DNA of 64,000 nt from a bacterium (GCA_021108295.1 JAIORF010000102.1:295963-359962), one strand, 5' to 3'; positions 8,925 through 62,525 are shown, numbered from the stretch's first letter. The notes: generated by a model from the letters alone, not told the origin. Numbers and translations: made by a program.

Positions 8925-10463
8925 ATGATTGCAAAACAAAAAGTACTCCTCATCGTCCTAGACGGACTTGGAGTTGCACCAAAAAGTAAAGGAAATGCTG
9001 TTGTACTGGCCAATCCTTCCAACCTCTCCTCCCTTTGGAATACCAACCCACACACATACCTCCTCGCCTCTGGAGAAGCCGTAGGACTACCAAAAAATGT
9101 AAAAGGAAACAGTGAGGTAGGACACCAGAACATTGGATCAGGACAAATTGTTAACCAACACTTACCAAGAATTAATAAAGCAATTAAAACAGGATCCTTT
9201 TTCCAATGCCGTGCCTTAAACAAAGGTGTTAAACACGCACTACAAAACAAAGGAGACATCCATATTCTAGGACTATTAAGTGATGGAGCTGTACACAGCC
9301 ATATTAACCACTTCATCTCTACACTAAAGTTTTTCGCACAAATCAATTTCAAAAACAAAGTTTACTTCCATGTATTCACAGATGGTAGAGATACGCCTAC
9401 TGAAAAAGCCATAGAGTTTTTAGATAAACTACAGTTCCATATCAACAAGAACGGAGTGGGTGAGATAGCGACAATATGTGGGAGAAGATATGGTATGGAT
9501 AGGAATAGGGCTTGGGATAGAACTAAACTAGCTTACGATTTAATAACTAATAGTATTGGTGCAAAATTCGATAACTACAAAGAGGCTGTAGAAGCTTCCT
9601 ACATACAGGGCTTCTCTGACGAATTTATAAAACCAAGTGTAATTGTACAAACGAAGATTAAACCAGGAGACTCCATCCTCCATATGAATTTTAGATCAGA
9701 TAGAGCACTTCAACTTTCAAAAGCGTTTACTGATCCAAAGTTAGACACATTTCAAAAAGAACATATTCCAGGCCTTTTCTTTGCAGCAATGGTGGAGTAC
9801 AGAAAGAACTTCCCAAAGAACATCTTAGTACCAAGACAATATATAACTTTACCACTGGGGAGAATTCTCAGTGGGTATGGTTTAAAACAATTACGTATAT
9901 CTGAATCCGAAAAATTCCCTCATGTGACATACTTCTTTAACGGAGGAGTCTCTGTACGATATGAGGGTGAAGATAGGATTGAAGTCCCATCTCCCGATGT
10001 AGCTCTCTACGACGAAGTACCAGAGATGTCTGCAGATGAAATGACTGACATATTAATAAGTAGAATAAACTCAAACCTCTACGATTTCATACTAGTCAAC
10101 TTCCCTAATCCTGACATGGTAGCCCATACAGGGAATATAGAAGCCTCTATAAAAGCTGTACAAGCCGTAGACCATTACGCTACCAGCTTGATAAAAACAT
10201 TCACTAGCAAAGGAGGGTGTGTAATCATCACTGCAGACCATGGGAATGCAGAAGAACTCCTAAACCTTGATACTGGAGCAATGGATACTGAACACTCCCT
10301 TAACCCTGTACCATTCATTCTAATCGGTACCACAATCAATCCTCATGTACTACCATATGGATCACTTAGAGATATTTCTCCAACAATCTTACAACTCATG
10401 GGAATAGCACAACCAATAGAAATGACAGGAAGCAGTCTAATACGAAACTTTAGCACATTCTAA
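8925..10463 (+). CDS. gpmI: 2,3-bisphosphoglycerate-independent phosphoglycerate mutase (copy 1)
   Basis: Full-length iPGM motifs LIVLDGLG, GNSEVGHQNIGSGQIV, TDGRDTPT, ADHGNAE. Confidence 0.9.
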   Translation: MIAKQKVLLIVLDGLGVAPKSKGNAVVLANPSNLSSLWNTNPHTYLLASGEAVGLPKNVKGNSEVGHQNIGSGQIVNQHLPRINKAIKTGSFFQCRALNKGVKHALQNKGDIHILGLLSDGAVHSHINHFISTLKFFAQINFKNKVYFHVFTDGRDTPTEKAIEFLDKLQFHINKNGVGEIATICGRRYGMDRNRAWDRTKLAYDLITNSIGAKFDNYKEAVEASYIQGFSDEFIKPSVIVQTKIKPGDSILHMNFRSDRALQLSKAFTDPKLDTFQKEHIPGLFFAAMVEYRKNFPKNILVPRQYITLPLGRILSGYGLKQLRISESEKFPHVTYFFNGGVSVRYEGEDRIEVPSPDVALYDEVPEMSADEMTDILISRINSNLYDFILVNFPNPDMVAHTGNIEASIKAVQAVDHYATSLIKTFTSKGGCVIITADHGNAEELLNLDTGAMDTEHSLNPVPFILIGTTINPHVLPYGSLRDISPTILQLMGIAQPIEMTGSSLIRNFSTF

Positions 10464-35857: not shown

Positions 35858-37117
35858 TTACCCAGTAAGATTCTCCATTCTGTTTAACAAATATTCAGAT
35901 ATCGGAATCTCCATATTAGTATTGGGATCATCAATAGAAAAAGTCTCTAGTTTTTCTAAAACAGCACCTAATTCTCGTTCCACTTGTTCTCTATTCATCT
36001 CGAATGTCTCTGCAATTTCAGACGGATGATGGGGATTATTAACAAAAGCAATTCCAAAACGTAAACAAACTAATCTGTATTCTCTCTCGGACAGGTTCTC
36101 ACATAAAAGATATGGTAATTCACATAAGTCTGTTAGACTTGTTGCTAATTCCTTGTCAGATATCTCACTTATATTCAACTTAAGGATACTCCCAGATTCT
36201 ATCGACCACAAAACGGAGCTACTTATCTGTTGCGCTTGCTGTTTTGACATATCAAATATCCTCGAGATTCCCCGAAAAGTCATAACATCTCCAAGAATTC
36301 CAGATCTAAGCATATAGATTCCAAAAGTACGCAGATTTCTTACTTTGCAATACCTTAAAATCTTTTTAAGAGTTTCTGAAACTTCCATCCTCTCGTCAAG
36401 CATACTTAAACCATCATTTTCTTTGGAAAGATAATTATGCGCCTTATCTCTATCTCTAAAATCGACAGATTCATCATTTAACGAAAAGGGTTCGTTCATT
36501 GCCCTCACTGCTGCAACCCTATTTTCTATCTTTACTTTGCTATATCCAAGTTCTATGCAACGACTTCGTACTCCCTCTTCTGTAAGTAATTCATCAAGTT
36601 TAAACACATCTTCGGACATATTCACAGGAACTTGAATCAAATTCCCGTGTTCTTGTAAGTGGCTCGATATTGCTTCTTTTATCCACCATATAGCATAGGT
36701 AGAAAACCTTTTATTCCTACTAGCCTTCTCTAAATCAAATTTCCTTAAAGCAATGACTATTCCCCATCGACCTTCCTGAAGAAGTTCTTCTCTTTCTGCA
36801 TGTTTGCTATAACCTCTTTGTTTTTTATACAAACTTAGAACCAATCCTCCATTTCTACAAACAAACTCCTTTTCAATCTCATAAATCTCCTCTTGTAACG
36901 AATTATCTTCCTTATGAACTTCAAACTCTTTTCTTAATATTGCATATCGTTCTAATTGAGCTCTCTCTTCCTCTGGTGTAAACAGAGGATACTCAGCCGT
37001 CAATCTTTTCATTTCGGCAAAAAGCCAACTATCTGAGGTATCAAGATATACCTCCTTCTCTGGAATTCCTTCTGCTCTTACAATTTCTTTATCTACACTC
37101 TTTATCTTATGTGTCAT
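35858..37117 (-). CDS. RNA polymerase sigma-70 family factor (paralog 1)
   Basis: Region 2 LLQEGRWGIVIALRKFDLEKASRNKRFSTYAIWWIKEAISSHL. Region 4 LSEREYRLVCLRFGIA...SEIAETFEMNREQVERELGAVLEKL. Confidence 0.75.
   Translation of the reverse strand: MTHKIKSVDKEIVRAEGIPEKEVYLDTSDSWLFAEMKRLTAEYPLFTPEEERAQLERYAILRKEFEVHKEDNSLQEEIYEIEKEFVCRNGGLVLSLYKKQRGYSKHAEREELLQEGRWGIVIALRKFDLEKASRNKRFSTYAIWWIKEAISSHLQEHGNLIQVPVNMSEDVFKLDELLTEEGVRSRCIELGYSKVKIENRVAAVRAMNEPFSLNDESVDFRDRDKAHNYLSKENDGLSMLDERMEVSETLKKILRYCKVRNLRTFGIYMLRSGILGDVMTFRGISRIFDMSKQQAQQISSSVLWSIESGSILKLNISEISDKELATSLTDLCELPYLLCENLSEREYRLVCLRFGIAFVNNPHHPSEIAETFEMNREQVERELGAVLEKLETFSIDDPNTNMEIPISEYLLNRMENLTG
36047..36175. repeat. 129-nt segment 100% identical to 37355-37483 (inside sigma paralog 1)
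   Basis: Direct read-through comparison. The surrounding gene sequence is only ~55-60% identical at the protein level. Confidence 0.85.
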
Positions 37118-37166
37118 GACTTAAATAGATCTAGTGGGGAGTAAAATATAATTATATTACAGTTCC

Positions 37167-38426
37167 TTACTTCGTAAAATTTCTTAAATTAGACAAATAC
37201 TCAGATACTGTAATCTCCGTATTAGTATTGGGATCATCTATGAGAAGAACTTCCAATTTCTCCATAATGGTGTCCAATTCTTGCTCTACTTGTTCTGTAT
37301 TTGTTTTTAATGTTTCTGCAATTTCAGACAATGGACAAGGTTTATTATCAATAAGAGCAATTCCAAAACGTAAACAAACTAATCTGTATTCTCTCTCGGA
37401 CAGGTTCTCACATAAAAGATATGGTAATTCACATAAGTCTGTTAGACTTGTTGCTAATTCCTTGTCAGATATCTCACTTATATCCAATTTACCAATCCTT
37501 CCATATACTACATTTCTTCGTACTCCATCAGTTATTTGCCTTACTCTCTCTCGTGATATGTTAAATATCTTTCCAACCTCTTCTAGTGTCATACCACATC
37601 CAAGAACTCCAGCTTTAAGCATAAACATTCCGAAATCCCGTATGTTTTTCTCTTTGTAATACTTAAGAATTTTCTTGGAGACTTCTGTAACCAACAGTCT
37701 ATTTTCTACTCGTCTACGAGTTGCCTCCCAGTCATTATTTGAAAGCTTCTGATATCCATTCTTACAATTCTCAGGTTCTTCATCTAATGACTCCTGCGAT
37801 GCTGCTCTAACTGCTGCAATTAACGCTTTCGTTTTTTGTTCTTTATACCCAAGCTCTTCACAACGGGCTCGAACAGCCTTTTCCGTTAATGGTAATGGAC
37901 AATTAAGTTTTGACAAAGCCCAATGAGTACTTGCAGAAACTCGCATTACACTTCTATTTTCTCTCTGATATCGCTCCATGAACGATTTAAGCCACCAACA
38001 TGCATAAGTAGAGAATTTTTTATTTCCTCCTATCTTGGCTAAATCAAACTTTCTTAAAGCCCAAACTATTGCCCAGCGACCTTCTTGGATAAGGTCATCT
38101 GCATCTGCAAATTTAGCAGGGTCCTTTATTTTACTATATTGTTTTAGAATTAATCCTCCATTTCTACAAACAAACTCGTTTTCAATCTCATTAATTTGAT
38201 CCTCAATTTTAGACACATTCCCATTATTACTATCCTTTAACTCTTTTCTCAATTTTGCATATCGTTCTAATTGAGCTCGCTCAACCTCTGGTGCAAATAC
38301 TGGGTACTCAGCTATCCATCTTTTTGTCTCGATAAAAATCCTACTCCTTGAGTTATCAAGATAATCCTCAGTTCTTTCCATTGTTATTGTAGATCCTTCA
38401 ACCTCACTCCCTGCATTGTTTAGCAT
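37167..38426 (-). CDS. RNA polymerase sigma-70 family factor (paralog 2)
   Basis: Region 2 LIQEGRWAIVWALRKFDLAKIGGNKKFSTYACWWLKSFMERY. Region 4 LSEREYRLVCLRFGIAL...SEIAETLKTNTEQVEQELDTIMEKL. Confidence 0.75.
   Translation of the reverse strand: MLNNAGSEVEGSTITMERTEDYLDNSRSRIFIETKRWIAEYPVFAPEVERAQLERYAKLRKELKDSNNGNVSKIEDQINEIENEFVCRNGGLILKQYSKIKDPAKFADADDLIQEGRWAIVWALRKFDLAKIGGNKKFSTYACWWLKSFMERYQRENRSVMRVSASTHWALSKLNCPLPLTEKAVRARCEELGYKEQKTKALIAAVRAASQESLDEEPENCKNGYQKLSNNDWEATRRRVENRLLVTEVSKKILKYYKEKNIRDFGMFMLKAGVLGCGMTLEEVGKIFNISRERVRQITDGVRRNVVYGRIGKLDISEISDKELATSLTDLCELPYLLCENLSEREYRLVCLRFGIALIDNKPCPLSEIAETLKTNTEQVEQELDTIMEKLEVLLIDDPNTNTEITVSEYLSNLRNFTK
37355..37483. repeat. 129-nt segment 100% identical to 36047-36175 (inside sigma paralog 2)
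   Basis: As above. Encodes ...ISEISDKELATSLTDLCELPYLLCENLSEREYRLVCLRFGIA. Confidence 0.85.
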
Positions 38427-40447: not shown

Positions 40448-41245
40448 ATGGATACAATAAAAATATTAACACTTTCGATTATACAGGGTATAACAGAATT
40501 GTTACCAGTATCAAGCAGTGGACACGTACTTGTAATAGGTAGACTCCTCAATCTTGATATATCTAATCACACAGCATTCCTTTCAACCTTGCACCTAGGT
40601 ACAACACTCGCTATTATAGTTTTCTTTAGAGAAGAACTCTTCGAGAACTTCTTTACTAAATCTAAACTCACGTTCTTTCTTAAACTACTCTTAGCCTCTC
40701 TACCTGTAGCAATGATTGGCTTTCTCTTCGAAGACTACATTGCCCAGTTCTATTATGGGAACCTCACCATCGCGATATTACTCATTGTTGTTGGTACGCT
40801 TTTTATAATCGCAGAAAACATTAACTTTAAAACAGTTAATCTTAAACCAAAAGAAGTACCACTTAGAAAAATGATACTGATTGGTATTGGCCAAACACTG
40901 GCACTAATACCTGGAACTTCTAGATCTGGAATTACAACTCTTAGTGGCATGATGTGCGGATTAAGTAAATATAGTGCCCTAAAATTCGGATTTATTCTAG
41001 GGATACCCATACTACTTGGAAGTAGTCTCTACGAGATTATCAAATCATACATAGAGACACCAGACAACTCTATAACCACAACCTCCCTCTCTATTGTGAA
41101 AATGCTTCCTGCAATAGCGATGACCTTTCTAGTCGGATATTTTGCACTATATGTTATAGAGAGATTTCAAAAGAAAAAATGGTTAACAATCTTTGGAATT
41201 TATAGATTAACAGTTGGATTATTAATATTAATATTTACTATATAA
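40448..41245 (+). CDS. uppP: undecaprenyl-diphosphatase
   Basis: GITELLPVSSSGH and PGTSRSGITTLSGM motifs. Confidence 0.85.
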   Translation: MDTIKILTLSIIQGITELLPVSSSGHVLVIGRLLNLDISNHTAFLSTLHLGTTLAIIVFFREELFENFFTKSKLTFFLKLLLASLPVAMIGFLFEDYIAQFYYGNLTIAILLIVVGTLFIIAENINFKTVNLKPKEVPLRKMILIGIGQTLALIPGTSRSGITTLSGMMCGLSKYSALKFGFILGIPILLGSSLYEIIKSYIETPDNSITTTSLSIVKMLPAIAMTFLVGYFALYVIERFQKKKWLTIFGIYRLTVGLLILIFTI

Positions 41246-42884
41246 CCCTATTAAGATCCATCCCTGTCATAATATCTGGAAGAGTAGCACCCATACTACT
41301 TAATGCTGTAGGAGCTATATCCGCAAGAATACCTGTAGGTTTAGCACTATCCCCAGTACCTATCTTCACAACATCCCTACCATCCTTGCCCTCTACCTGA
41401 TCCATACTTTCAATTATTGTAAATGGTACTGGATTATTCGTATGGGCCCTATGAATCTCTTTGGTAGTACGATCTATCATCGTCTCACAATTCCCGTGAT
41501 CAGCAGTAATCATCACAGAACCTCCCACACTTAATGTTGCCCTAGCTATATCTGCTGTACAACTATCTGTTATCTCATTGGCTTTAATCGTTGCTCTAAA
41601 ATCCCCCGTATGACCCAACATATCAGGATTTGCGAAATTCACCAACACAAAACCATAGTTATACTTCGCATTATTCTTAATCCTATTAACAGTCTCATCC
41701 CTAATTATCAAAGCACTCATTTCGGGAGTCTCGGCATAGGTATTTACACGAGGAGAAGGAATATTGAAAAAATCTTCACCCACATGTTCCTTCTCTACAC
41801 CACCATTAAAGAAATATGTCACATGCATATGCTTTTCTGTCTCAGACACATGTAATTGATTAATTCCATTATCTGCAAGATATTGAGCCAAAGAGAGTTT
41901 AACTTTGTTTGGTGGGAATATTACCTTAGCAGGAAGTCCCTCTTCATATCCTGTCATAGTTACAAAACAGATATTCTCAGGAAAAGACCTTCTAGGAAAA
42001 TGCGTCCAATCTTTCAAAACAAATGACTTAGTTATCTGCCTAGCCCTATCCTCTCTGAAATTCCAAAAAAGTATAGCATCCCCAGTCTCTACCTTACCTA
42101 CTGGTTTTCCCCTTCCATCTACAGCTACTGTAGGTAAAAGAAACTGATCAGTGACACCCTTCTTGTAAGAATCTTGCACAGCCTTTATCGGATCAACAAA
42201 AGTACTACCTGAAAGACCTACCATAGCGTCATATGCTAGCTTTGTCCTCTCCCAACGACTATCCCTATCCATCCCATAAAACCTCCCCTGCAAAGAAGCA
42301 ATATGACCAACACCAAGATCTTCCATCTTCTTTTTAAGCTTAGTCAAATACCAATACCCGTCAGTTGCAGGAGTATCCCGCCCATCAAGGATCACGTGAA
42401 CATATGGATCTACACCACGAGTCTTACAAAGTTCAAGAAGTGAGAACAAATGCTTAATATGGCCATGTACACCAGCAGCACTCAATATCCCCACTAGATG
42501 CAATCGAGAATTATTCTCCTTCATATGCTTAAACATATCTTTTACAGCGTCATTATTATCCAACTCATGATGAGCAAGAGCCTCATTAATTCTAGGCAAT
42601 GACTGATACACAACCTGACCCGCACCCATATTCAAGTGCCCAACCTCACTATTGCCTACAACCTCACTAGGTAGACCTACATGTGTACCGGATGCATGAA
42701 TTAGAGTAGATTTCCCATTGGTCCAAGCTGTATCCAAAAACGGAGTCTTAGCTGTAAGCACAGCATTTCCCATTTTATCTGGATGAACTCCAAAACCATC
42801 AAGGATGATTAATGTAACCAGCTTCTCAGCCCCCACATTACCTCCACTCTCTTTTATCTTTTGTTTATTAAAAAGTCCAAACAT
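41238..42884 (-). CDS. gpmI: 2,3-bisphosphoglycerate-independent phosphoglycerate mutase (copy 2)
   Basis: LIILDGFGV, GNSEVGHLNMGAGQVV, DGRDTP, ADHGNCE motifs. Start trimmed to MFGLFNKQK (42882-42884). The longer Cys-rich N-terminal ORF overlaps prfB and is not credible. Confidence 0.8.
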   Translation of the reverse strand: MFGLFNKQKIKESGGNVGAEKLVTLIILDGFGVHPDKMGNAVLTAKTPFLDTAWTNGKSTLIHASGTHVGLPSEVVGNSEVGHLNMGAGQVVYQSLPRINEALAHHELDNNDAVKDMFKHMKENNSRLHLVGILSAAGVHGHIKHLFSLLELCKTRGVDPYVHVILDGRDTPATDGYWYLTKLKKKMEDLGVGHIASLQGRFYGMDRDSRWERTKLAYDAMVGLSGSTFVDPIKAVQDSYKKGVTDQFLLPTVAVDGRGKPVGKVETGDAILFWNFREDRARQITKSFVLKDWTHFPRRSFPENICFVTMTGYEEGLPAKVIFPPNKVKLSLAQYLADNGINQLHVSETEKHMHVTYFFNGGVEKEHVGEDFFNIPSPRVNTYAETPEMSALIIRDETVNRIKNNAKYNYGFVLVNFANPDMLGHTGDFRATIKANEITDSCTADIARATLSVGGSVMITADHGNCETMIDRTTKEIHRAHTNNPVPFTIIESMDQVEGKDGRDVVKIGTGDSAKPTGILADIAPTALSSMGATLPDIMTGMDLNRVI

Positions 42885-42924
42885 ACTATGATATACATAT
42901 TTACATAGTATATAATAGATTGCA

Positions 42925-44001
42925 ATGAATACCCTCACAAAAAAAGATTTAGAAAACACAAAAAGACTTCTTGAATCAATCATTAACTCACTGAAACTCA
43001 CTGAGAAAGAACAAAAACTTAAAGAATTAGAAAAGGACTCCTTGAAGACCGACTTCTGGTCAGACAATGTACAAGCACAAAACACCATGAAGCAAATAGA
43101 AAGCATACGCAAAGAAAAAGACACATCAACTACACTCACCAACGACATTGATTCACTAATTGAATTGTATGAGATAGAAGAGAATAAAGAACAACTAACA
43201 GAAGAATACAACAATATCCATAGTAGAATAAAAGACTTTGAGAAACTTAAATTCCTCTCAGGCAAATATGACAACAACAATATTCTACTAAGTATTCATG
43301 CAGGACAAGGAGGAACTGAATCCAATGACTGGGCTTCTATGCTTCTTCGAATGTACCAAATGTATTGTGATAAAAAAGGTTGGAAATATGAGATAGAAAA
43401 TGCAGTAAGTGGAACTGAAACTGGAATATCTAGTATTACAATGAGAATTACTGGAGAATATGTATATGGACTACTCAAGGAAGAACACGGTACACACAGA
43501 CTTGTAAGAATTTCTCCCTTTAATGCACAGGGCTTGAGACAAACCACATTCGCTGGAGTTGAGATAATACCAATACTTGAAAAGATAGACACCGACATAG
43601 AAATACCTGAAAACGATATAGAGTTTAAAGCTGTAAGAGCTAGTGGACCAGGAGGACAGAAAGTAAACAAAACCTCCTCTGCTGTACAAATTACACATAC
43701 ACCTACAGGAATTACAGTTCACTCCTCTACACAAAGAAACCAACTACAAAACAGAGAGAATGCAATGAACCTACTCAAATCAAAACTTGCAAAGATTCTA
43801 GAAGAAGAAAGAATAGAAGAAATAGATCAAATTAAAGGCAATTACAAACAAGCAAGTTGGGGTAATCAGATACGAAACTATGTACTACACCCATATAAAT
43901 TGGTGAAAGATTTAAGAACAAACATTGAAAGTAGTAATCCCCAATTTATACTAGATGGCAATCTTGATGAATTTGTTGAAGCGCAACTAAGAATACAGTA
44001 G
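42925..44001 (+). CDS. prfB: peptide chain release factor 2 (uninterrupted ORF, no programmed frameshift)
   Basis: SPF tripeptide motif (RISPFNAQGLRQTTFAG) and GGQ (SGPGGQKVNKTSS). Confidence 0.85.
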   Translation: MNTLTKKDLENTKRLLESIINSLKLTEKEQKLKELEKDSLKTDFWSDNVQAQNTMKQIESIRKEKDTSTTLTNDIDSLIELYEIEENKEQLTEEYNNIHSRIKDFEKLKFLSGKYDNNNILLSIHAGQGGTESNDWASMLLRMYQMYCDKKGWKYEIENAVSGTETGISSITMRITGEYVYGLLKEEHGTHRLVRISPFNAQGLRQTTFAGVEIIPILEKIDTDIEIPENDIEFKAVRASGPGGQKVNKTSSAVQITHTPTGITVHSSTQRNQLQNRENAMNLLKSKLAKILEEERIEEIDQIKGNYKQASWGNQIRNYVLHPYKLVKDLRTNIESSNPQFILDGNLDEFVEAQLRIQ

Positions 44002-50683: not shown

Positions 50684-51009
50684 CGTTCTTTCCTTTTTCT
50701 CTAGTCTAATAGGACACATCCAACTTTCTTGACAATATCACCTCCTTAAAGGTTCTTACATAACATATTTAATATTTACTTTTTAAAGATCTCTTTAGTT
50801 TGCTTTCATTAAGAAAAAGTTCTCAAACTACTCACAAACCCAAATTTGATTGACAATACAAAATTGTACAATCGCTATAATATAGCCTATAATACGCAGA
50901 TTGTCAATCTACAAACACCCTCACAGACTTCTTTTTCTATGAAAGATTTTGTATAATATAACCTTACACATTGTAGAATGTGAAGTATTTATATTACACC
51001 TAAGTAACC

Positions 51010-52233: not shown

Positions 52234-52876
52234 ATATATGAAAAACTTACACATTAGAATAACAACAATACTCCTAATCCTACTCACCTACTTCGTTCTA
52301 GTACCCTCACTAATCCTCCAATACGGTAAAAGCAAAATATATACAGACATCAGTAAAATACCAACCTACAACATAGCCATAGTCTTTGGAGCTGGACTAA
52401 AACCAGACGGAACACCAAACGATATGCTAGAAGACAGACTAGACACAGCAGTTGAACTCTACAACGAAGGGAAAATAGAAAAACTCCTCCTCTCTGGAGA
52501 CAACTCCCTAGAAGAATACAACGAACCACAAGCAATGTACGAATACCTCACACTCATCAAAGAACTACCACCAGAAGATGTAGTACGCGACTTTGCAGGA
52601 CTAAGAACATATGACACATGTGCAAGAGCTAAAAACATTTGGAATATAGATGAAGCAATACTCATATCACAAGGCTACCACCTCTCAAGAGCAATATTCA
52701 CATGCAATACGCTAGGAGTAGAAAGTACAGGATTCTCTGCTACCAAAGATATATACATAGGAGAGACATACTACAAACTAAGAGAAATACTAGCTATACA
52801 CAAAGCCCTAATAGACATATATATAATCCACCCTGAATACATAGGGGGAGAAGTAGAGACAGATTTCCTTAATTAA
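52211..52876 (+). CDS. SanA/YdcF-family (DUF218) membrane-anchored protein
   Basis: N-terminal TM. IAIVFGAGLKPDGTPNDMLEDRLDTAVELYNEGKIEKLLLSGDN...TYDTCARA...ISQGYHLSRAIFTC. Confidence 0.6.
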   Translation: MIFRIWSRYMKNLHIRITTILLILLTYFVLVPSLILQYGKSKIYTDISKIPTYNIAIVFGAGLKPDGTPNDMLEDRLDTAVELYNEGKIEKLLLSGDNSLEEYNEPQAMYEYLTLIKELPPEDVVRDFAGLRTYDTCARAKNIWNIDEAILISQGYHLSRAIFTCNTLGVESTGFSATKDIYIGETYYKLREILAIHKALIDIYIIHPEYIGGEVETDFLN

Positions 52877-53877
52877 ACAAACTTCATACCCATAGCTTTC
52901 TCCACTTCACTGATTACCTCCCTTGCATTAGCCTTAGCCAACCTCTTACCCTTCTCTAATACCCCTAATACATAATCATCAGATACTGAAGCCTTCTTCT
53001 TCTGAAAAGCCTTTAGAAACCCTTCCATCACCTCCATCAAAAGGCTCTTAAACTCACCCATTACCTGCTCCCCATCCAAATGCTTCTGTAAGATACTCTC
53101 AAATTCATTTTTCTGTTCATCAGTAGATACATAATCAGCAATTAGCTTCAAACTCTTTAAATCCTCACTCATATCCCCTGCAAAAGCACTCTTTGCTCGC
53201 TTAATCTTCTTGAGAGAAACATCAATATCATCATCCAGTAATATTGCACCATTAGGCTCACTCTTACTCATCTTCTTACCACTACCAGTAAGTGAAAGGA
53301 TATTGATTCCTTCACCACTATCAAGTGGCTTTGAAGCTAGAAATACATCCCCATACTTTTTGTTAAAACGCTTTACCAAATCATTTGTAACCTCTAAATG
53401 AACATACTGATCCTTGCCCACAGGAACATACCTAGAACCCTGAAGTAATATATCAGCAGCCATCATTACAGGGTAAAAAGCAAGAAGAGTATTAGCTGTA
53501 GCTTCACCATTCCCTTTTTTAATTTTCTCTTTAAGAGTAGGTACTCTAAGTAGTTCTGCTACTGTAATTAATCTAGAAAGATATATGGTCAACTTACTAA
53601 CCTCATCCATTATCTGACTCTGCACAAAAAGATCCACCTTCTTTGGATCTAGACCAGCTGCAATGTAATCTTTGATAACGGAAAGAACATTACCCTGAGT
53701 TTCACTAGGCTCTTCAGTTGTAAGACTGTGTAAATCTGCAACAAAAATCATTGGCTTGCCCAATGAACCATCTTGCATAATGCGAAGTATTGGATCAACA
53801 ACACCTATTAGATTAGCAATACTCATACCAGAAGTAGCTCTCATTCCAGTAAATATATCTGTTTTGTAATTTTTCAT
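52873..53877 (-). CDS. trpS: tryptophan--tRNA ligase
   Basis: Class I aaRS. N-terminal TGMRATSGMSIANLIG (HIGH-region variant) and KMSKS (GSGKKMSKSEPN). Confidence 0.9.
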   Translation of the reverse strand: MKNYKTDIFTGMRATSGMSIANLIGVVDPILRIMQDGSLGKPMIFVADLHSLTTEEPSETQGNVLSVIKDYIAAGLDPKKVDLFVQSQIMDEVSKLTIYLSRLITVAELLRVPTLKEKIKKGNGEATANTLLAFYPVMMAADILLQGSRYVPVGKDQYVHLEVTNDLVKRFNKKYGDVFLASKPLDSGEGINILSLTGSGKKMSKSEPNGAILLDDDIDVSLKKIKRAKSAFAGDMSEDLKSLKLIADYVSTDEQKNEFESILQKHLDGEQVMGEFKSLLMEVMEGFLKAFQKKKASVSDDYVLGVLEKGKRLAKANAREVISEVEKAMGMKFV

Positions 53878-53920: not shown

Positions 53921-53952
53921 TTGTGAAAAACAAAAACCCCACATATGTGGGG
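53921..53952 (-). terminator. intrinsic terminator of the trpS leader
   Basis: CCCCACAUAUGUGGGG hairpin (53937-53952) followed on the minus strand by UUUUUGUUUUUC. Confidence 0.6.
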
Positions 53953-53981
53953 TATATAATTCATATGAAAAAACAAAATTA

Positions 53982-54038
53982 CTACCCCAAAAGGTAGCTC
54001 CACCAAAACATTATTGTATTAATCTTATTGTTTTCCAT
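53982..54038 (-). CDS. putative trpS leader peptide MENNKINTIMFWWSYLLG (tandem Trp codons at 54000-54005)
   Basis: 18 codons plus UAG. The two UGG codons sit on segment 1 of the attenuator and the stop codon lies inside segment 2. A TATAAT lies 5 nt upstream of the AUG, which could make the mRNA leaderless. Confidence 0.5.
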   Translation of the reverse strand: MENNKINTIMFWWSYLLG

Positions 54039-54122
54039 ACGTTATTATACAACATCCCTACATTTTAAACTACTTGAGAATAATGTAACATGTATTAGAA
54101 ATTAAAATTAATATACACACCA

Positions 54123-54503
54123 ATGACAAAGAACAAACAAATATACAAATGTGGAATATGTGGAAATGTTGTAGAAATACTACACGAAGGATCAGATACT
54201 CTTGTATGCTGCAAGAAGCCAATGAGACTACTACAAGAACAAAATGACGAACATGGATTAGAAAAACATGTACCAATAGTTAAGCAAAATGGACAAACTG
54301 TAATTGTTACAGTAGGCAGTACTACACACCCTATGGAGGACTCACACTATATCGAATGGGTTGAGTTAATAGTAGATGGAGAAATACTAAGAAAACATTT
54401 TACTCCTACGGATAAGGCAGAGGTCAAGTTTTTAATTACTCGACCATCCCTTGAGATAAGGGCTAGAGCATACTGCAACGTACATGGGCTTTGGAGAAGT
54501 TAA
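54123..54503 (+). CDS. dfx: desulfoferrodoxin / superoxide reductase (2Fe-SOR)
   Basis: N-terminal desulforedoxin-like YKCGICGNVVEILHEGSDTLVCCKKPM. Neelaredoxin domain EKHVP...HPMEDSHYIEW...CNVHGLW. Confidence 0.85.
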   Translation: MTKNKQIYKCGICGNVVEILHEGSDTLVCCKKPMRLLQEQNDEHGLEKHVPIVKQNGQTVIVTVGSTTHPMEDSHYIEWVELIVDGEILRKHFTPTDKAEVKFLITRPSLEIRARAYCNVHGLWRS

Positions 54504-56182: not shown

Positions 56183-56194
56183 ACTATCAATATA

Positions 56195-56222
56195 CCACAG
56201 AAGAAGGCCTGGCATAGGGGTG
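56195..56222. promoter_or_regulatory. copy A of conserved GCCTGGCATAGG-core element (between divergent capA-like and SLT-like genes)
   Basis: Forward ...atataccacagaagaaggcctggcataggggtgtatggtataat. Flanked by TGgTATATT (leftward, 6 nt before the capA ATG) and TGGTATAAT (rightward). Confidence 0.5.
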
Positions 56223-56270
56223 TATGGTATAATATACTATGGGGTGTTACATAAGATTATATTAATAATA

Positions 56271-56882
56271 ATGAAAAATACCTTACAAATAAACAAAAAG
56301 AAGATATTACCCGTTATTACAGGGATACTGTTTGTGGCACTAACTTTAAAAAGTGTTAGTGAAGCTACACCTACATCAATATTAAATCTCGACTATTCTA
56401 GAGATATTACAGTTTCTGCTGCAAATACAGTAGAGATAGAACAAAGCAATATAGAAGATTTAGATATTAACAAAACACATAACACTACCAACACAACTAT
56501 TGCTTCAGCAAGCAATCAAGTAAAAATTGAGAATATTAGGAAATATCTAACAAAGAGGAACTCTCCACTAGCTGACTATGCTAAGGAGTTTGTAGATGCT
56601 GCAAACCATTACGGTATTGACTATAGACTAGTAGCCGCTATCTCCATTATCGAATCTAGTGGTGGTATTCACTGTTTTAGAACCTATAACGCCTGGGGTT
56701 GGGGTAAAAGTGGATTTGACTCATGGGAAGACGGAATATGGAGTGTATCTAAGGGTCTTGGGAAATACTACGCTGGTGGTAGAGATACCCCAGAAAAAAT
56801 TGCAACTAGATACTGTCCTCCAAATGCAGTTAAGTGGGGAAATAATGTATCATACATTATGAACCTAATTGAAAATCAATAA
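56271..56882 (+). CDS. lysozyme-like (SLT/glucosaminidase-type) peptidoglycan hydrolase-like protein, paralog 2
   Basis: Start taken at MKNTLQINKKK (signal/TM). YRLVAAISIIESSGG...YNAWGWGKSG...YCPP shared with 3049-3774. Confidence 0.4.
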   Translation: MKNTLQINKKKILPVITGILFVALTLKSVSEATPTSILNLDYSRDITVSAANTVEIEQSNIEDLDINKTHNTTNTTIASASNQVKIENIRKYLTKRNSPLADYAKEFVDAANHYGIDYRLVAAISIIESSGGIHCFRTYNAWGWGKSGFDSWEDGIWSVSKGLGKYYAGGRDTPEKIATRYCPPNAVKWGNNVSYIMNLIENQ

Positions 56883-56885
56883 CTT

Positions 56886-57578
56886 ATGCAAACTAAGTTA
56901 GCAAAGTATACAATCAGTTACCTCAATGAGCAGGAGTATCATTATCTCAAAAACGAAATCTTCACCAACAATTGTTACTCCTTTGAAACTGACAAGGAAG
57001 ACCCACTCATTATTGATGTTGGAGCACACATTGGCTTATCTATCCTCTATTTCAAAAGAGAATACCCCAACTCAAGAATAGTTGCTTTTGAACCAAATCC
57101 AATTACAGTTCAAGTGCTTAATGAGAATATCTTTAATAATAATCTCGATGATATAGAGATACACGAAAGTGCCATATGGGTAGAAGATGGGATTAAGAAA
57201 ATGTATATCGACAACACAGAACAAGATAGATACTCTGTCGCTTCTTTCAACAAGAATTGTTGGAATGGTACTGTAAAAAGCAAATTGATTAGTGTAAAGA
57301 CAGAAAGATTAGACAAATATGTAAACCAAGATATTGATTTACTCAAGCTAGATATTGAAGGAGCTGAGCAAAGGGTACTGAAGAGTATAAAAAGGTATTT
57401 CTGTAATATTAAGAATATCATTTTCGAATATCACCCTACACATGGCCAAGACATCAAGAAGATATTAGAACTTTTAGATACACATTATGACATTCGCATA
57501 TATCAAAATGGCAAAGAAATTAAAAAGAATATTCCCAACAACAAACTCTTACTAGTAAATGCTACCTATAAAAAGTAA
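56886..57578 (+). CDS. FkbM-family SAM-dependent methyltransferase
   Basis: IIDVGAHIGLSILYF...RIVAFEPNP...LKLDIEGAEQRVL. Confidence 0.7.
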   Translation: MQTKLAKYTISYLNEQEYHYLKNEIFTNNCYSFETDKEDPLIIDVGAHIGLSILYFKREYPNSRIVAFEPNPITVQVLNENIFNNNLDDIEIHESAIWVEDGIKKMYIDNTEQDRYSVASFNKNCWNGTVKSKLISVKTERLDKYVNQDIDLLKLDIEGAEQRVLKSIKRYFCNIKNIIFEYHPTHGQDIKKILELLDTHYDIRIYQNGKEIKKNIPNNKLLLVNATYKK

Positions 57579-58581
57579 GTATCTTACCAAAAAATCTTCC
57601 CCACTTACTTCTAAATATTTTGTATAGAGCGTCACCCAACTTCTTAGGCTCGTGTCTAACCAAACTTCTAGTAAGTGTATCTCCCTTAACCTCCTGAATT
57701 ATAGAGTTCGCTACTAAATCACCTCTTACAATAACCCTATCACCACCATCTGAAAGATCATCTTTAAAAACCTCTTCTCCATCCTCTTTATATCTCCTAA
57801 AGGCATCTTCAGGTAATCTACCATTATTAATCAAAACAAAATCAAACTTCCTTCCTACATAACCCTCCATCATCTCAAGCATACTTTTTTGTGTAAACCC
57901 CCTAGTCTGTCCAATCTTGGACATAAGGTTGGGGATAAAGATAAGGCTAGCTTTTGTTTCTTGCAATGCCTGTGCAATACCAGGAACAATAATATTAGCT
58001 AAAGTTGTTGTATACATATCACCTGGACCTATAATTATAAAATCAGACTCCATTATCTTCTCTATAGCACCCTTATACGCCTTTACTTTCGAGCTAAGAT
58101 AGAACTTCGTAATACTTTTATCAACCTCTGGCTCATCAATTAGATGCTCCCCTTCTACCTTACTCCCATCATCATATTCCGCAACCAGCTTTGTATCATC
58201 AAGTGTCACCGGTAAAATACTCCCTCTCACACTAAATAGATATTTAAACGCTCCAATCGCTTCTATCTCCGAACCTGCAATATCAACCATTGCAATCATC
58301 AAAAGATTTCCCAGTGTATGACCTTTCAGTCCATTACCATCTGAGAATCGATAGGTAAATAAGTCCCTAATCCAATTATTCTCATTCTCCTCTGACAGTG
58401 CAATTATCGATTTCCTTAAATCACTTAGTGGTAATATTCCAAACTCATCTCTAATTACTGCGTTACTTCCTCCATCATCCATCATTCCAACAATGACAGA
58501 GAGATCCAACTCCCCATATCGTTTAAGTCCCTCTAAGACATTTGACGTACCCGTTCCTCCACCTATTAGTGTAATATTCAT
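57562..58581 (-). CDS. YvcK/CofD-like (UPF0052, gluconeogenesis factor family) protein
   Basis: ITLIGGGTGTSNVLEGLKRYGELDLSVIVGMMDDGGSNAVIRDEFGILPLSDLRKSIIAL. Confidence 0.75.
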   Translation of the reverse strand: MNITLIGGGTGTSNVLEGLKRYGELDLSVIVGMMDDGGSNAVIRDEFGILPLSDLRKSIIALSEENENNWIRDLFTYRFSDGNGLKGHTLGNLLMIAMVDIAGSEIEAIGAFKYLFSVRGSILPVTLDDTKLVAEYDDGSKVEGEHLIDEPEVDKSITKFYLSSKVKAYKGAIEKIMESDFIIIGPGDMYTTTLANIIVPGIAQALQETKASLIFIPNLMSKIGQTRGFTQKSMLEMMEGYVGRKFDFVLINNGRLPEDAFRRYKEDGEEVFKDDLSDGGDRVIVRGDLVANSIIQEVKGDTLTRSLVRHEPKKLGDALYKIFRSKWGRFFGKILTFYR

Positions 58582-58638
58582 ATCTAATTATACACAAAGA
58601 TTTCATTAATGTAATGTGGTATAATGGGATATTAATAT

Positions 58639-59178
58639 GTGAATTATCGCAATATGGCTTTAAAAGTTGGCTCAAAGGTTTTTTACCCCACACATGGTGC
58701 AGGATTTATAAAGGATAAGAAGTATATAGAGTTTAATGGTGAAGAGAAAGAGTACTTCGTGTTTGATTTAATCAATAGTCCTTTAGCTATTTCTACCCCC
58801 GTAGAGAATCTTGAGATGCTTGGTATCAGACCTGTACTTAAGTCAACAGAGATTAAAGCAAAAGTTAAAATTCTTAAAAAAACTCCTACCATTAATCCTA
58901 AGAATAAAGATTTCAACGAATTAATCTCTATTTTCGAAGATTTAAACAAGAATGCTGATATTGATTCTGCTATTAGAGTTATACAGCATTGTAATTTTGT
59001 TAAAGCAGAAAGAATTGCAGATGGAAGACTCATTCCTGTTACAATCGAGAAAGAACTTGATAAAGCAATACTAGATATTGTTGGAGAATTGGCTATTTCT
59101 GCAGGGATTAAACTTACTACAGCAGCAGAACAGTTAATGAAGGTCACAGGGATAGAAGAAATTGAAGTAGAGGATTAA
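58639..59178 (+). CDS. CarD/CdnL-family RNA polymerase-binding transcription factor
   Basis: N-terminal KVGSKVFYPTHGAGFI...YFVFDL...ISTPVENLEMLGIRPV is a CarD_CdnL_TRCF-like domain. Confidence 0.7.
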   Translation: MNYRNMALKVGSKVFYPTHGAGFIKDKKYIEFNGEEKEYFVFDLINSPLAISTPVENLEMLGIRPVLKSTEIKAKVKILKKTPTINPKNKDFNELISIFEDLNKNADIDSAIRVIQHCNFVKAERIADGRLIPVTIEKELDKAILDIVGELAISAGIKLTTAAEQLMKVTGIEEIEVED

Positions 59179-59197
59179 TTAACCCACTACTCAACTC

Positions 59198-62155
59198 CTA
59201 CTTCTCAACCGTCAGAGAAACCTTTGCTTTACCCAACTCAAACCTATTACCAACTACACTATCCCCTACCTCAAAACAACTCAACTTCAAATCTTTTTGA
59301 TTTTCACTAAGATATTTCTCTACAATACCCCTAACTTCATCCTCATCAATATTAACAACAAGTTTTATACTATCCTCATAATTAATACCCTCCCCCTTCT
59401 TCCTAGCATTCTGATACTTCCTTACAAAATCATTTATATACCCCTCACTCACAAGCTCCTCTGTTAGATTAATATCCAATGAGACATACTTCTCGTACTC
59501 ACCAATTGTAACAAGACCCTCAACTGGCTTCTCACTATACTCTATCTCTTTTACATTGAGCTCTGATTGTACAATATCTCTAAGAAACTCTTTCTCAATT
59601 GCTACATATACCTTAGACAAAGGTTGTCTTAATTTGAGACCATTATCCTCCCTAATCTTAAGACCATTAGAACATATCTCTCTAACTACCTCCATCTCTC
59701 TTAACAACTCCACATCTATATCTTTCTGTTGAAATACAGGATAATCCTCCAGATGCACAGACTCCAATGCTCCATCTACCCCAGTCTTTACTACAAGATT
59801 TTGATACATCTCTTCAGTAAGAAACGGCATCTGTGGTGCAAATGTTTTAGCAAACAAAACCATAGTTGCATAAAGAGTTTGTAAAGCATCTGTATTACCA
59901 TCTGCAAACCTACCCCTAGACCGTCTAATCCACCACTTAGATATATTATCAATACACGGCTGAATTAACTTCACAGACGCAGGAATATTGTACTCCTCTA
60001 AAGCCTCTGCATATTTCTGAGTAGTCTGCTTCATATATGATTCAATCCACTTATCTAATTTCTCTTCAGAAGTAAATTCTGTAGTAGTTGGCGCCCAATC
60101 ATGCATATTGCTATACAAAGATAGATATCTATAGGTATTCCAAATCGGAATTAACACATCCTTGACCTGATCATTTAAAATATCATCTGACCAATGAATA
60201 TCTCCACCTACCATTATTGAGGAGGACATGATATACAATCGCAATGCCTCACCACCCTTCTCTTCTAAAACAAGTCTAGGATCAGGGTAATTCTCGTACG
60301 ACTTACTCATCTTCCTACCATCATTACCGAACATAACCCCAGTACAAATTACATTCTTATACGGCACATCATCAAAAAGCATTAGAGACATTCTAAAGAG
60401 GACATTAAACCATGCTCTAATCTGTCCAGTATATTCAACAATGAAGTCAGCTGGGTATGCCTGTTCGAAAGCTTCTTTGTTTTCAAATGGATAGTGATGC
60501 TCTGCAAAAGGTACACTACCAGAATCCATCCAACAATCTAATACCTCAGGAATTCTGTGATACTCTTTACCATCTTTCTTAAACACCAATTTATCACACA
60601 CATCCCTATGAAGTGTCATTTTCTTACCCTCAATCCTATACTCCACCTTCCCATCCTCAGTATTAATCTTTTCAATTTGATCAGTATACTCCATCATCTC
60701 TTCTATACTTCCTACCACTATCTGCTCTCCATCTTTACTTTCCCATACTGGCATAACAGTTGCCCAGTATCTACTTCTTGAAATTGCCCAATCAGGAGCA
60801 GTTTCCAATACATTCTTAAATCTTTTCTTAAATGTCTCTGGTATCCAATTTATCTTCTCCTGTAATTTAAGCATCTTAGGTTTAATTTCCTGAATATCTA
60901 CAAAATATGAATCTTGAGACATATATATCAATGGGTTCTTACCTCTGTAGAACGGTAACCTATGCACATATTTCTCACTTCGAAGTAGCTTCCCTTGCTT
61001 TTCTAAATCCTTAGCAACCATAGGGGAAGCATCCCGAATGTATACACCCTTCCAATTTCCATCTAACATATTCCCTGCTTCATCTATATGTACTACATCA
61101 CTTAGCCCCCACTCCTTCCCTAAATTGAAATCCACTTCACCAAATCCAGGTGCTACATGCAATATTCCAGTACCCTCATCCTCAATTACTTCATCCGAAA
61201 GATACACCTTCCAGTCTTTCTCACTAACCTTGTCTACAAAGAAGTCATATGCCGGCTCATACTCGAAACCTTCCAACTCTTTTCCTTTAAGTTCATGTAC
61301 TACCTCATACTCTTCTTCACCAAAGGTATACTCCAATCTACTTGTAGCTACTACTAGGTACTCATCCTTAAACTTCACTATGGAGTAATCAAGATCCTCG
61401 TTCACAACCAAAGCAAAGTTTGCAGGTATAGTCCATGGGGTCGTTGTCCAAACAAGAAGTCTAAGTGGTTTCTTATTTGTATATTTATCAAACTCTTTTG
61501 TCTTAAGCGAAAACTTCACAAATATTGAAAGATCTTCTACATCTTCATAGGTGTCATCCATAGTGACTTCAAAGTTTGATACTGGTGTACAGGTATCTGT
61601 TGAATACATAGAAACTCTTTTCCCTTTGTATATCAAATCCTTATCCCAAATCTGTTTGAAGGCCCATATTACAGACTCATTAAATTCTGGATCCATAGTC
61701 CTGTATGCATTATCCAAATCTACCCATCTACCTAATTTCTCGATATACCATCTCCAGTCCGAAATCCCTTGTTCAACATATGCTCTACACTCCTGTACAT
61801 ACTTATCTACCCCTATCCTTGTCTCCACATCCACCCTATCTTTTACTTCCAACTTCTTATTCACTCTTGCCTCAATTGGTAATCCATGACAATCCCATCC
61901 CCACACTCTTCGCACCCTATATCCTTTCATTGTCCAATATCTTGGGATTATATCCTTAGGTATTGATACCAACAATGATCCGTAGTGTGGAGTACCTGTA
62001 ACAAATGGAGGACCATCTACAAATGAATATCTCTTATCCTCTGACCTATTCTCAATACTCTTCTTAAAGATATTTCCCTTTTTCCAAAACTCATTTATCC
62101 TATCTTCCATCACACTAAACTGTGCTCTTGGATTTACTTCTGGTATTTTTCCCAT
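59198..62155 (-). CDS. ileS: isoleucine--tRNA ligase (type 2, eukaryote/archaea-like)
   Basis: FVDGPPFVTGTPHYGSLL (HIGH-region variant of type-2 IleRS). KMSKS (GRKMSKSYENYPDP). 985 aa. Confidence 0.9.
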   Translation of the reverse strand: MGKIPEVNPRAQFSVMEDRINEFWKKGNIFKKSIENRSEDKRYSFVDGPPFVTGTPHYGSLLVSIPKDIIPRYWTMKGYRVRRVWGWDCHGLPIEARVNKKLEVKDRVDVETRIGVDKYVQECRAYVEQGISDWRWYIEKLGRWVDLDNAYRTMDPEFNESVIWAFKQIWDKDLIYKGKRVSMYSTDTCTPVSNFEVTMDDTYEDVEDLSIFVKFSLKTKEFDKYTNKKPLRLLVWTTTPWTIPANFALVVNEDLDYSIVKFKDEYLVVATSRLEYTFGEEEYEVVHELKGKELEGFEYEPAYDFFVDKVSEKDWKVYLSDEVIEDEGTGILHVAPGFGEVDFNLGKEWGLSDVVHIDEAGNMLDGNWKGVYIRDASPMVAKDLEKQGKLLRSEKYVHRLPFYRGKNPLIYMSQDSYFVDIQEIKPKMLKLQEKINWIPETFKKRFKNVLETAPDWAISRSRYWATVMPVWESKDGEQIVVGSIEEMMEYTDQIEKINTEDGKVEYRIEGKKMTLHRDVCDKLVFKKDGKEYHRIPEVLDCWMDSGSVPFAEHHYPFENKEAFEQAYPADFIVEYTGQIRAWFNVLFRMSLMLFDDVPYKNVICTGVMFGNDGRKMSKSYENYPDPRLVLEEKGGEALRLYIMSSSIMVGGDIHWSDDILNDQVKDVLIPIWNTYRYLSLYSNMHDWAPTTTEFTSEEKLDKWIESYMKQTTQKYAEALEEYNIPASVKLIQPCIDNISKWWIRRSRGRFADGNTDALQTLYATMVLFAKTFAPQMPFLTEEMYQNLVVKTGVDGALESVHLEDYPVFQQKDIDVELLREMEVVREICSNGLKIREDNGLKLRQPLSKVYVAIEKEFLRDIVQSELNVKEIEYSEKPVEGLVTIGEYEKYVSLDINLTEELVSEGYINDFVRKYQNARKKGEGINYEDSIKLVVNIDEDEVRGIVEKYLSENQKDLKLSCFEVGDSVVGNRFELGKAKVSLTVEK

Positions 62156-62159
62156 TTGA

Positions 62160-62420
62160 TTACTTTTAATATTATTTAAACAAAAAGCCCCTCATTAGAA
62201 ACTAATATACTTTAACATATTAATCTCTAACAAGGGGCGTATTTTACGCGGTACCACCCTTAGTTCTAAATTACATTACTGTAATCTACTTTTAAACCAC
62301 CTACATGGTTTGGATATATTTCGGTTATCTTCCGTTAGATTCTACTTACCCTAAGGCTTTCTTTCCACCACTCACCAGTGATAGCTGGGTCAATGTGTTA
62401 ACAAATTATATCACACCAAG
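62160..62420 (-). promoter_or_regulatory. T-box riboswitch leader upstream of ileS
   Basis: Minus-strand RNA contains AACUAAGGGUGGUACCGCG (forward 62247-62265), matching the T-box consensus AAUUAGGGUGGNACCGCG. It is immediately followed by the terminator helix GCCCCUUGUUAGA...UCUAAUGAGGGGC and CUUUUUGUUU. Leader length to the ATG is ~245 nt. Confidence 0.7.
62178..62239 (-). terminator. T-box leader intrinsic terminator
   Basis: Hairpin gcccctcattaga...tctaacaaggggc (62187-62239) with the U-run at 62178-62186 on the minus strand. Confidence 0.6.
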
Positions 62421-62433
62421 CCTGGCATAGGAA
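62405..62433. promoter_or_regulatory. copy B of GCCTGGCATAGG element with extended -10 TGATATAAT oriented toward the ileS T-box leader
   Basis: Minus-strand reading CCTATGCCAGGCTTGGTGTGATATAATTTGT. Confidence 0.5.
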
Positions 62434-62490
62434 TTTATTCTGTTGTATAGGGGGAAAAGAAGCAAATATACGCTTAAACCACACTATAGG

Positions 62491-62525
62491 AGGCCTATGC
62501 CAGGCCTGCTGTGATATACTGTCCT
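62491..62525. promoter_or_regulatory. copy C of the element (inverted relative to B) with extended -10 TGATATACT oriented toward pepF
   Basis: Forward GGCCTATGCCAGGCCTGCTGTGATATACTGTCCTC, then ATG at 62527. Confidence 0.5.

Follow-up and report, generated by a model that had tools for sequence, protein, structure and literature searches.

We analysed a 64,000-nucleotide (nt) stretch of bacterial DNA (GCA_021108295.1, JAIORF010000102.1:295963-359962), referred to here at its full length as the window, and focused on a short GC-rich 12-mer, GCCTGGCATAGG, that recurs beside promoters at two loci and that we call the box. The source genome is a metagenome-assembled genome (MAG) of the Candidate Phyla Radiation (CPR)/Patescibacteria type, and its best named IleS and CapA relatives are from Dojkabacteria, at about 57% identity. 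Members of this group have tiny genomes with few regulators, and to our knowledge almost nothing is known about their transcriptional regulation. At the first locus one copy of the box separates the promoter of capA (PGA_cap) from that of an operon consisting of hyp203, a 203-amino-acid (aa) hypothetical gene starting at ATG 56271, and a gene for an FkbM-type methyltransferase (fkbM). At the second locus two copies lie in the spacer between pepF and the leader of ileS. The box copies and the promoter elements next to them are as follows.

56189-56199, minus strand: extended -10 element TGTGGTATATT of capA, 12 nt from copy A, followed after 6 nt by ATG 56182
56207-56218, plus strand: copy A of the box, exact match to GCCTGGCATAGG, between two back-to-back divergent promoters
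56225-56233, plus strand: extended -10 element TGgTATAAT of the hyp203-fkbM operon, 9 nt from copy A
62405-62415, minus strand: extended -10 element TGTGATATAAT of the ileS T-box leader promoter, 9 nt from copy B
62420-62431, plus strand: copy B of the box, exact match to GCCTGGCATAGG, reading CCTATGCCAGGC on the minus strand, 9 nt upstream of the ileS -10 element
62481-62493, plus strand: upstream box ACACTATAGGAGG (CTATRGG) of the pepF promoter, kept in both clades compared below and flanking a 13-nt slot that holds the variable box
62494-62505, minus strand: copy C of the box, exact match to GCCTGGCATAGG, reading CCTATGCCAGGC on the plus strand, 9 nt upstream of the pepF -10 element
62510-62520, plus strand: extended -10 element TGTGATATACT of pepF, 9 nt from copy C, followed after 6 nt by ATG 62527
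62407-62518, both strands: mirrored 112-bp unit (25-nt arm, 62-nt spacer, 25-nt arm)

Box statistics were computed over the 64-kb window on both strands, with 100 dinucleotide shuffles as controls. The 12-mer has three exact matches against 0.00 expected, and all three fall in the intergenic DNA that makes up only 7.6% of the window, each 9-12 nt from a strong TG-extended -10 element. This bears out an earlier note on this DNA, which had reported three intergenic copies of a promoter motif that does not resemble a -35 box. Allowing up to two mismatches to the 12-mer added a single match, intragenic and at chance level, and the 7-mer core GCCAGRC is absent elsewhere in the window on either strand. 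Relaxed searches of the window with the palindromic forms described below (ATGCCWGGCAT with at most two mismatches, RTGYCWGRCAY with at most one) gave chance-level matches and no further promoter sites. The box is real, non-random and promoter-specific. Read toward their promoters, the three copies align as follows.

Copy A toward capA: CCTATGCCAGGC-cttcttc-TGTGGTATATT-gatagt-ATG
Copy B toward ileS: CCTATGCCAGGC-ttgg-TGTGATATAAT-(T-box leader)
Copy C toward pepF: CCTATGCCAGGC-ctgc-TGTGATATACT-gtcctc-ATG

Copies A and C have 17 nt in common at 94% identity, and 23 of 25 nt when the -10 element is included, with one 3-nt indel. The element had been described as about 25 bp long, which overstates it: much of the longer similarity is the ordinary extended -10 (TGTGRTATA), found at unrelated promoters as well, and the specific part is 12-17 nt. 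The flank of copy A also needs correcting, being TATACCACAG plus 3 extra nt and not TATATCACA. Copies B and C are identical at 23 of 25 nt and form the inverted repeat that had been reported between ileS and pepF, recovered here as 25-nt arms (62407-62431 / 62494-62518) that are 92% complementary and stand 62 nt apart. Each arm of the resulting 112-bp unit consists of the box, 4 nt and the TGTGATATA of an outward-facing promoter. The unit has a predicted DNA fold of -21 kcal/mol (z = -3.7), and its sequence is the same in three independent samples of the window strain.

In four promoters (pepF, the ileS leader, capA and hyp203-fkbM) the box lies at about -33 to -22, with its centre at -25 to -30, and copy A serves promoters in both orientations. 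No TTGACA-type -35 element is present at any of the boxed promoters, and the conserved core of the box, at -30 to -22, occupies the spacer and not the -35 zone. Most promoters in the window likewise have no -35 element and rely on TGn-TATAAT. A TANNNT hexamer ending 4-8 nt before the start codon is found at 21 of 51 window genes, compared with 12% of random positions, and 10 of these 21 are TG-extended; a Shine-Dalgarno-like sequence is found at only 2 of 51. An extended -10 element followed by a leaderless mRNA is thus the norm in this window. For pepF (ATG 62527) and capA (ATG 56182), leaderless mRNAs, which the earlier note had proposed, are well supported by sequence: the TATACT-N6-ATG of pepF is conserved in eight species, and the NCBI CapA protein (MCD4811843.1, 560 aa) begins at ATG 56182, so that a longer open reading frame (ORF) starting from the ATG inside the box is an artefact. 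The same proposal fails for the plus side of copy A, because ATG 56239, 5 nt after the -10 element, is out of frame with the gene, which starts at ATG 56271. We also set aside a mini-ORF, MPGL(L/V), that begins at the ATG in the box; a Shine-Dalgarno-like AGGAGG, 3 nt away, is found at copy C alone, and the shared frames follow trivially from the repeat. Elsewhere in the window, at 50848-50909, a 10-nt inverted repeat (GATTGACAAT / ATTGTCAATC) lies within a 290-nt divergent intergenic region. The minus strand of this region has a canonical promoter, TTGACA-N17-TATATT, which a TTGACA on the plus strand faces. The gene downstream, of 554 aa, is among the two counted above that have a Shine-Dalgarno sequence.

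The box had been suggested to be either the recognition element of a sigma paralog or an operator. Of these two functions the operator is the best supported, and the sigma element is not borne out. On the sigma proposal, the box would be read as an upstream element by an alternative sigma factor, such as either of the tandem sigma-70-like paralogs (35858-38426), and both the presence of two divergent sigma paralogs in the window and the lack of TTGACA-type -35 elements at the boxed promoters are consistent with this. Such an element would be held at a fixed spacing of about +/-1 nt, whereas the GCCAGRC core and the -10 hexamer are 9, 9, 12 and 14 nt apart in the window, with the promoter in the opposite orientation included, 7, 10, 10, 15 and 18 nt in the related species represented by contigs L008 and L022, and 7-18 nt across species. 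The core is moreover palindromic, one copy serves both orientations, the core sits in the spacer, most other window promoters are equally without a -35 element, and the orthologous promoters persist without the box in relatives L006, L010, L007 and others. The variable spacing and the use of both orientations exclude a -35-type sigma element, and any alternative-sigma role for the box is very improbable. As a separate observation on the paralogs themselves, each is 419 aa (35858-37117 and 37167-38426, both on the minus strand), Pfam detects region 2 only in one and region 4 only in the other, and the two share the upstream sequence TTTACTCCCCACTAGA.

Two further promoter-based explanations, that the box is the -24 element of a sigma-54 promoter or that the 62-nt segment between copies B and C is an invertible promoter switch, earn next to no credence. 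Sigma-54 promoters have GG at -24 and GC at -12 (TGGCAC-N5-TTGCW). The box does contain TGGCA, but no copy has GC or TTGC at -12, where the sequences read TGTA, TTTA and TCCT, and promoters in these orientations would point inward. A switch would account for inverted repeats flanking a short segment, yet a single orientation is seen in three samples of the window strain, two of L008 and four of L011; in addition, 62 bp is very short for a recombinase synapse and the window encodes no recombinase gene. Resemblances to DnaA-box, CRP-like, NrdR-box and LexA-box sites were inspected by eye and none fits.

We compared the pepF-ileS spacer and the capA locus with the syntenic loci of nine related species, grouped by the identities of their IleS, CofD and PepF proteins. 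Clade 1 consists of L011, L015, L024 and L025. Clade 2 has three lineages of roughly equal depth, namely the window strain with L006, L007 alone, and L008 with L010. The same -10 elements recur in these relatives: the ileS -10 element followed by AACACAT is found in nine species, and the orthologous -10 elements of pepF, ileS and hyp203 are kept in 8-9 species, most of which lack the box or have a degenerate or substituted one. In L006 (assembly GCA_021107795.1), the closest relative (IleS 89% identical), the two -10 elements are 19 nt apart compared with 92 nt in the window, and only the promoter-proximal CAGRCCTG...CAGG of the box region remains, which looks like a palindrome-mediated deletion that fused the two promoters. 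L010 (assembly GCA_041741255.1) has a single degenerate copy (TGGaATAGGAA) between back-to-back -10 elements. At the first locus, L007, L011, L015 and L023 keep the hyp203 -10 element and have no box; the capA upstream region differs in these same four, and the box with the capA promoter module is found in the window strain only. Judged from these sequence comparisons, the box is lineage-specific and dispensable.

Other relatives carry the box in related forms. L008/L009 have a perfect 23-nt inverted repeat, AGGGATGTCTGGCATACTGGTAC (28 nt at 96%), with about 122 nt between the arms, which adjoin outward leaderless promoters, one of pepF and one of an inserted adh gene. In L007, L011, L015, L024 and L025 the pepF-ileS spacer contains a different box, GGGTTAGACAC(C), present once in L015 and L025, three times in L007, and in L011 and L024 as an inverted pair with a central palindrome between them (GGTGTTAAACACC in L011, a perfect GGTGTCAGACACC in L024). 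This version has been conserved across the five species, whose IleS identity is 74-84%, while the surrounding spacer diverged. At the pepF promoter both box types fill the same 13-nt slot between CTATRGG and the -10 element (TATACT-N6-ATG), with CCTATGCCAGGCC in the window and GGGGTTAGACACC in L011, and the box-to--10 distance is 31 nt in both. We also observed a block of approximately 35 nt, CTTAGGTGTYARACACC..AAAAGGGCCTT, conserved in the middle of the clade 1 spacer (L011 9640-9680, L024 2343-2385). It holds the central palindrome together with a second small dyad, AAGGGCCTT, and could serve as an auxiliary operator or form a small RNA feature.

All versions of the box fit the palindrome TGYCWGRCA and so can be described as one family. 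The core is GCCWGGC in the window and L022, with GCCTGGC in copy A (centre 56210), GTCTGGC in the L008 arms, which is a hybrid, GTCAGAC at the L024 centre and in the L022 ogg promoter, and GTTAGAC or GTTAAAC in the L011 type. The differences between box types are mostly symmetric across the two half-sites (GTC/GAC versus GCC/GGC), and this symmetric change, together with the L008 hybrid, is the pattern expected of a dimeric binder. Compared with the longer palindrome ATGCCWGGCAT, the L008 arms match at 10 of 11 positions and a site in L022 matches perfectly.

L022 is a second contig from the same sample as L008, and we took it to be the same species. Two boxed promoters of the form GGCCAGGCCTTG-N-TGTATAWT stand in tandem at 3129 and 3195, the second driving the trpS leader peptide, and the ogg promoter has the box GGTCAGACC 11 nt upstream of its -10 element. 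A further site, at 2820-2850 (box at 2824), is inside the ogg-like HhH-GPD gene, where the box and its upstream flank, ACACTATAGGAGGGGGATGCCTGGCATACA, encode IHYRRGMPGIH. This site matches window positions 62480-62509, in the pepF promoter, at 23 of 30 nt, a level that 300 shuffles did not attain (21 of 30 at most). Read on the opposite strand, a TATAGT lies 10 nt beyond this site, which may act as an antisense or internal promoter toward trpS. An in-frame insertion of an element into ogg was rejected, as the L022 protein has no indel relative to its L023 ortholog; the converse, that the window spacer is a decayed ogg gene, was also rejected, as tblastn recovered nothing beyond HYRR-MPG (E=2.3) and the flanking DNA is random.

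The boxed targets are therefore pepF, ileS and capA with hyp-fkbM in the window, and pepF, adh, the two tandem promoters before the trpS leader peptide, and ogg in the L008/L022 species. Both box-positive species have pepF as a target, and each also has an aminoacyl-tRNA synthetase target, ileS in one and trpS in the other. Wider scans added nothing to this list. In a genome collection that did not include the source genome, box-N2-9-TGTGRTATA gave two unrelated matches only (a Thermoplasmata coding region and a high-GC MAG); in metagenomes without the L008 sample, the 19-mer of the L008 arm gave five chance matches on unrelated contigs of 41-59% GC; and a scan of viral contigs gave no match.

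The core sequences also bear on whether DNA methylation or a restriction-modification system targets the box, with the methylation state modulating the promoters. GCCWGGC contains CCWGG and is a strict 7-bp palindrome, and the window contains fewer CCWGG sites (34) than an order-3 Markov model predicts (57 +/- 7). On the other side, conservation reaches beyond the 7-mer, the GTCAGAC and GTTAGAC variants of the relatives do not contain CCWGG, and the window yielded no gene for a DNA methyltransferase or restriction enzyme, the FkbM and UPF0020 proteins not being DNA methyltransferases. We find this explanation scarcely credible.

Somewhat less far-fetched, while still improbable, is that the B-C unit is a non-autonomous mobile element, such as a miniature inverted-repeat transposable element (MITE) or a Correia-like or REPIN-like element, with 25-nt terminal inverted repeats and outward promoters, and that copy A is a solo end. 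Correia elements and REPINs similarly form units of about 110 bp with inverted ends of about 25 nt and outward -10-like sequences at the ends. The 112-bp unit has inverted ends beginning TA|TATCACA, it is present in the window and not in L006 (92 versus 19 nt between the -10 elements), and a 30-nt piece of it recurs within a coding region of another species, the L022 site described above. However, the outer 9-11 nt of the arms are the orthologous -10 elements, which every relative lacking the element retains, including at the 'empty' sites of L006 and L010, so the unit is not a clean insertion. No target-site duplication is seen relative to these two species. The 62-nt interior is neither conserved nor repeated in the 72 kb examined, in which the arms alone repeat, as three copies and not as a multi-copy family, and the window has no transposase or RAYT gene. 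The absence of an indel in the L022 ogg protein at the intragenic site likewise speaks against insertion there.

Tentatively, we favour the reading that the box is the operator of a putative dimeric DNA-binding regulator, and that a promoter module of about 25 nt, copied locally and in inverted orientation, gave rise to its sites; this is our leading candidate, held at a level just short of probable. A regulator bound at -33 to -22 would overlap the footprint of RNA polymerase. With the operator placed there, at promoters that have no -35 element, repression would be the simplest outcome, and the regulator would probably be a repressor. Palindromic operators of helix-turn-helix or ribbon-helix-helix repressors are comparable in that a short dyad box occurs in one to three copies between divergent promoters, overlapping the polymerase footprint, and in that a small set of targets gains and loses members between species with symmetric half-site change. 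By analogy, an activator that substitutes for the -35 element in the manner of Pho boxes is a conceivable alternative. Pho-box-type sites also lie about 10 nt upstream of the -10 element in promoters lacking a -35; they are direct repeats at fixed spacing, whereas the box is a palindrome at variable spacing and the -10 elements it accompanies are already TG-extended and near consensus.

Under the operator reading, regulation would couple peptide breakdown (pepF), charging of Ile-tRNA (ileS) and capA. The three copies would not be of independent origin. The pepF copy (C) would be ancestral, as related forms occupy the same place in L008, in L010 (degenerate) and in L006 (proximal half only). 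The ileS and capA copies would then be copies of the pepF promoter module of about 25-28 nt, comprising the box and the extended -10. Twice independently, in the window and in L008, the partner promoter would have received this module as an inverted copy, and capA would have received it once; the inverted copying onto the ileS promoter would explain the 25-nt inverted repeat of the window. Putative mobile promoters have been defined as sequences of 50-100 nt with at least 80% identity that lie upstream of non-homologous genes (Matus-Garcia et al. 2012, PMC3488235). The present case resembles these in having near-identical promoter sequence before non-homologous genes, with the capA promoter rebuilt around the module, and falls outside the definition with a shared module of only 25-28 nt.

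Several findings weigh against an operator. Pfam scans of all window ORFs and inspection of the related loci found no transcription factor gene beside the sites, and the window's DNA-binding candidates are limited to ParB, a Fic-HTH_DeoR protein and the two sigma paralogs. In contrast to the known repressor operators, no cognate regulator is encoded nearby. Genes of 86-94 aa beside pepF/ileS in L007, L011 and L015 were considered as regulators and rejected, as their products have no Pfam domain and are acidic and of low complexity. The window palindromes are imperfect, which again differs from those operators: the copies match the 11-bp ATGCC-W-GGCAT at 10 of 11 positions, and symmetry alone is weakly significant. 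Paired sites have centre-to-centre distances of 79, 149 and 66 bp, with no common helical phase. The box is dispensable in the nearest relative, where only the promoter-proximal remnant is left, and degenerate in L010. Finally, copies within a genome share flanking sequence in excess of what such operators need, and their likeness goes beyond the demands of an 11-bp site (arms of 25 nt in the window, 23 nt and perfect in L008), which fits neutral copying as well as selection.

Neutral copying is the chief competing explanation, one that we judge unlikely and yet far from negligible. It holds that the box binds nothing and hitch-hikes as a by-product of promoter copying. A quasi-palindrome is already present in divergent extended -10 promoters (TATATCACA ... 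TGTGATATA); its arms would be extended and homogenised by short-patch gene conversion or by template switching during replication, and the module would occasionally be copied to another promoter. Template-switch mutation at quasipalindromes is an established mechanism (PMC7202029). The excess arm identity (23/25 in the window, 23/23 in L008, 12-13 nt in L011 and L024), the concerted change of the arms between lineages, and the loss of the box by deletion in L006 and decay in L010 while the promoters themselves were retained are all consistent with it, as is the resemblance of the L006 state to a palindrome-mediated deletion that kept the outer CAGRCCTG...CAGG. Against it stand the conservation of GGGTTAGACAC across five species despite a diverged spacer, and the symmetry of the box-type changes across both half-sites. 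The arms are also not equidistant from the -10 elements in L011 and L024 (6 versus 16 nt), and unlinked promoters carry the box (6.2 kb apart in the window; ogg and the trpS leader in the L008 species), which local template switching does not explain.

A bolder version of the operator reading, which we consider rather doubtful, is that the sites represent the first recognisable regulon of a Dojkabacteria-like CPR lineage. A putative dimeric regulator would control the amino-acid supply genes pepF, ileS and the trpS leader, and also capA, from an operator in a fixed slot of mirrored divergent promoters; its specificity would have switched symmetrically (GTC/GAC to GCC/GGC), and genes would have been recruited by copying a 25-nt leaderless promoter-plus-operator cassette and not by point mutation. 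If pepF and aminoacyl-tRNA synthetase genes do share an operator slot, this would provide a handle on how CPR bacteria sense amino-acid supply, and the close relatives, in which the box is naturally present, deleted, swapped or duplicated, already supply a series of mutants. Should the copies prove neutral, the locus would illustrate clearly how an inverted repeat grows between divergent promoters. On either reading it is a local, lineage-specific feature and does not define a new class of system.

The ileS leader, which the earlier note had correctly identified as a T-box next to copy B, contains two features.

62230-62402, minus strand: ileS T-box leader (RF00230, 47 bits, E=3e-8), beginning directly after the copy B promoter
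62189-62236, minus strand: intrinsic terminator of the ileS T-box

The leader carries the conserved T-box sequence AGGGUGGUACCGCG and an ultrashort stem I, CCCAG-CUAUCA-CUGG, whose loop CUAUCA contains AUC (Ile). Its 47 bits are below the Rfam gathering score of 93 because stem I is truncated, and by its sequence features the leader is a genuine T-box. The intrinsic terminator indicates that it probably acts on transcription. Actinobacterial ileS T-boxes have a similarly ultrashort stem I, and the present one differs from them in its intrinsic terminator and in the CPR-type genome that carries it.

An apparent leader-peptide attenuator precedes trpS in the window (53926-54049, minus strand), between dfx (54123-54503) and trpS (52873-53877). 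Its -10 element TATAAT (54049..54044) is followed after 5 nt by a leaderless 18-aa ORF, MENNKINTIMFWWSYLLG* (54038..53982), with tandem Trp codons, downstream of which CCCCACATATGTGGGG (53952..53937), a hairpin, and its T-run make up a terminator. An antiterminator could form by pairing of TTGGGG, from the last codons, with the terminator's left arm. The leader peptide (WW) and terminator are conserved in L007, L011, L015 and L023, and L022 retains one Trp (FWC).

The window also contains two paralogous genes for cofactor-independent phosphoglycerate mutase (iPGM_N + Metalloenzyme), at 8925-10463 on the plus strand and 41238-43280 on the minus strand. The second of these ORFs has an N-terminal extension of about 150 aa that overlaps the plus-strand ORF 42925-44001, and its start is therefore probably miscalled.

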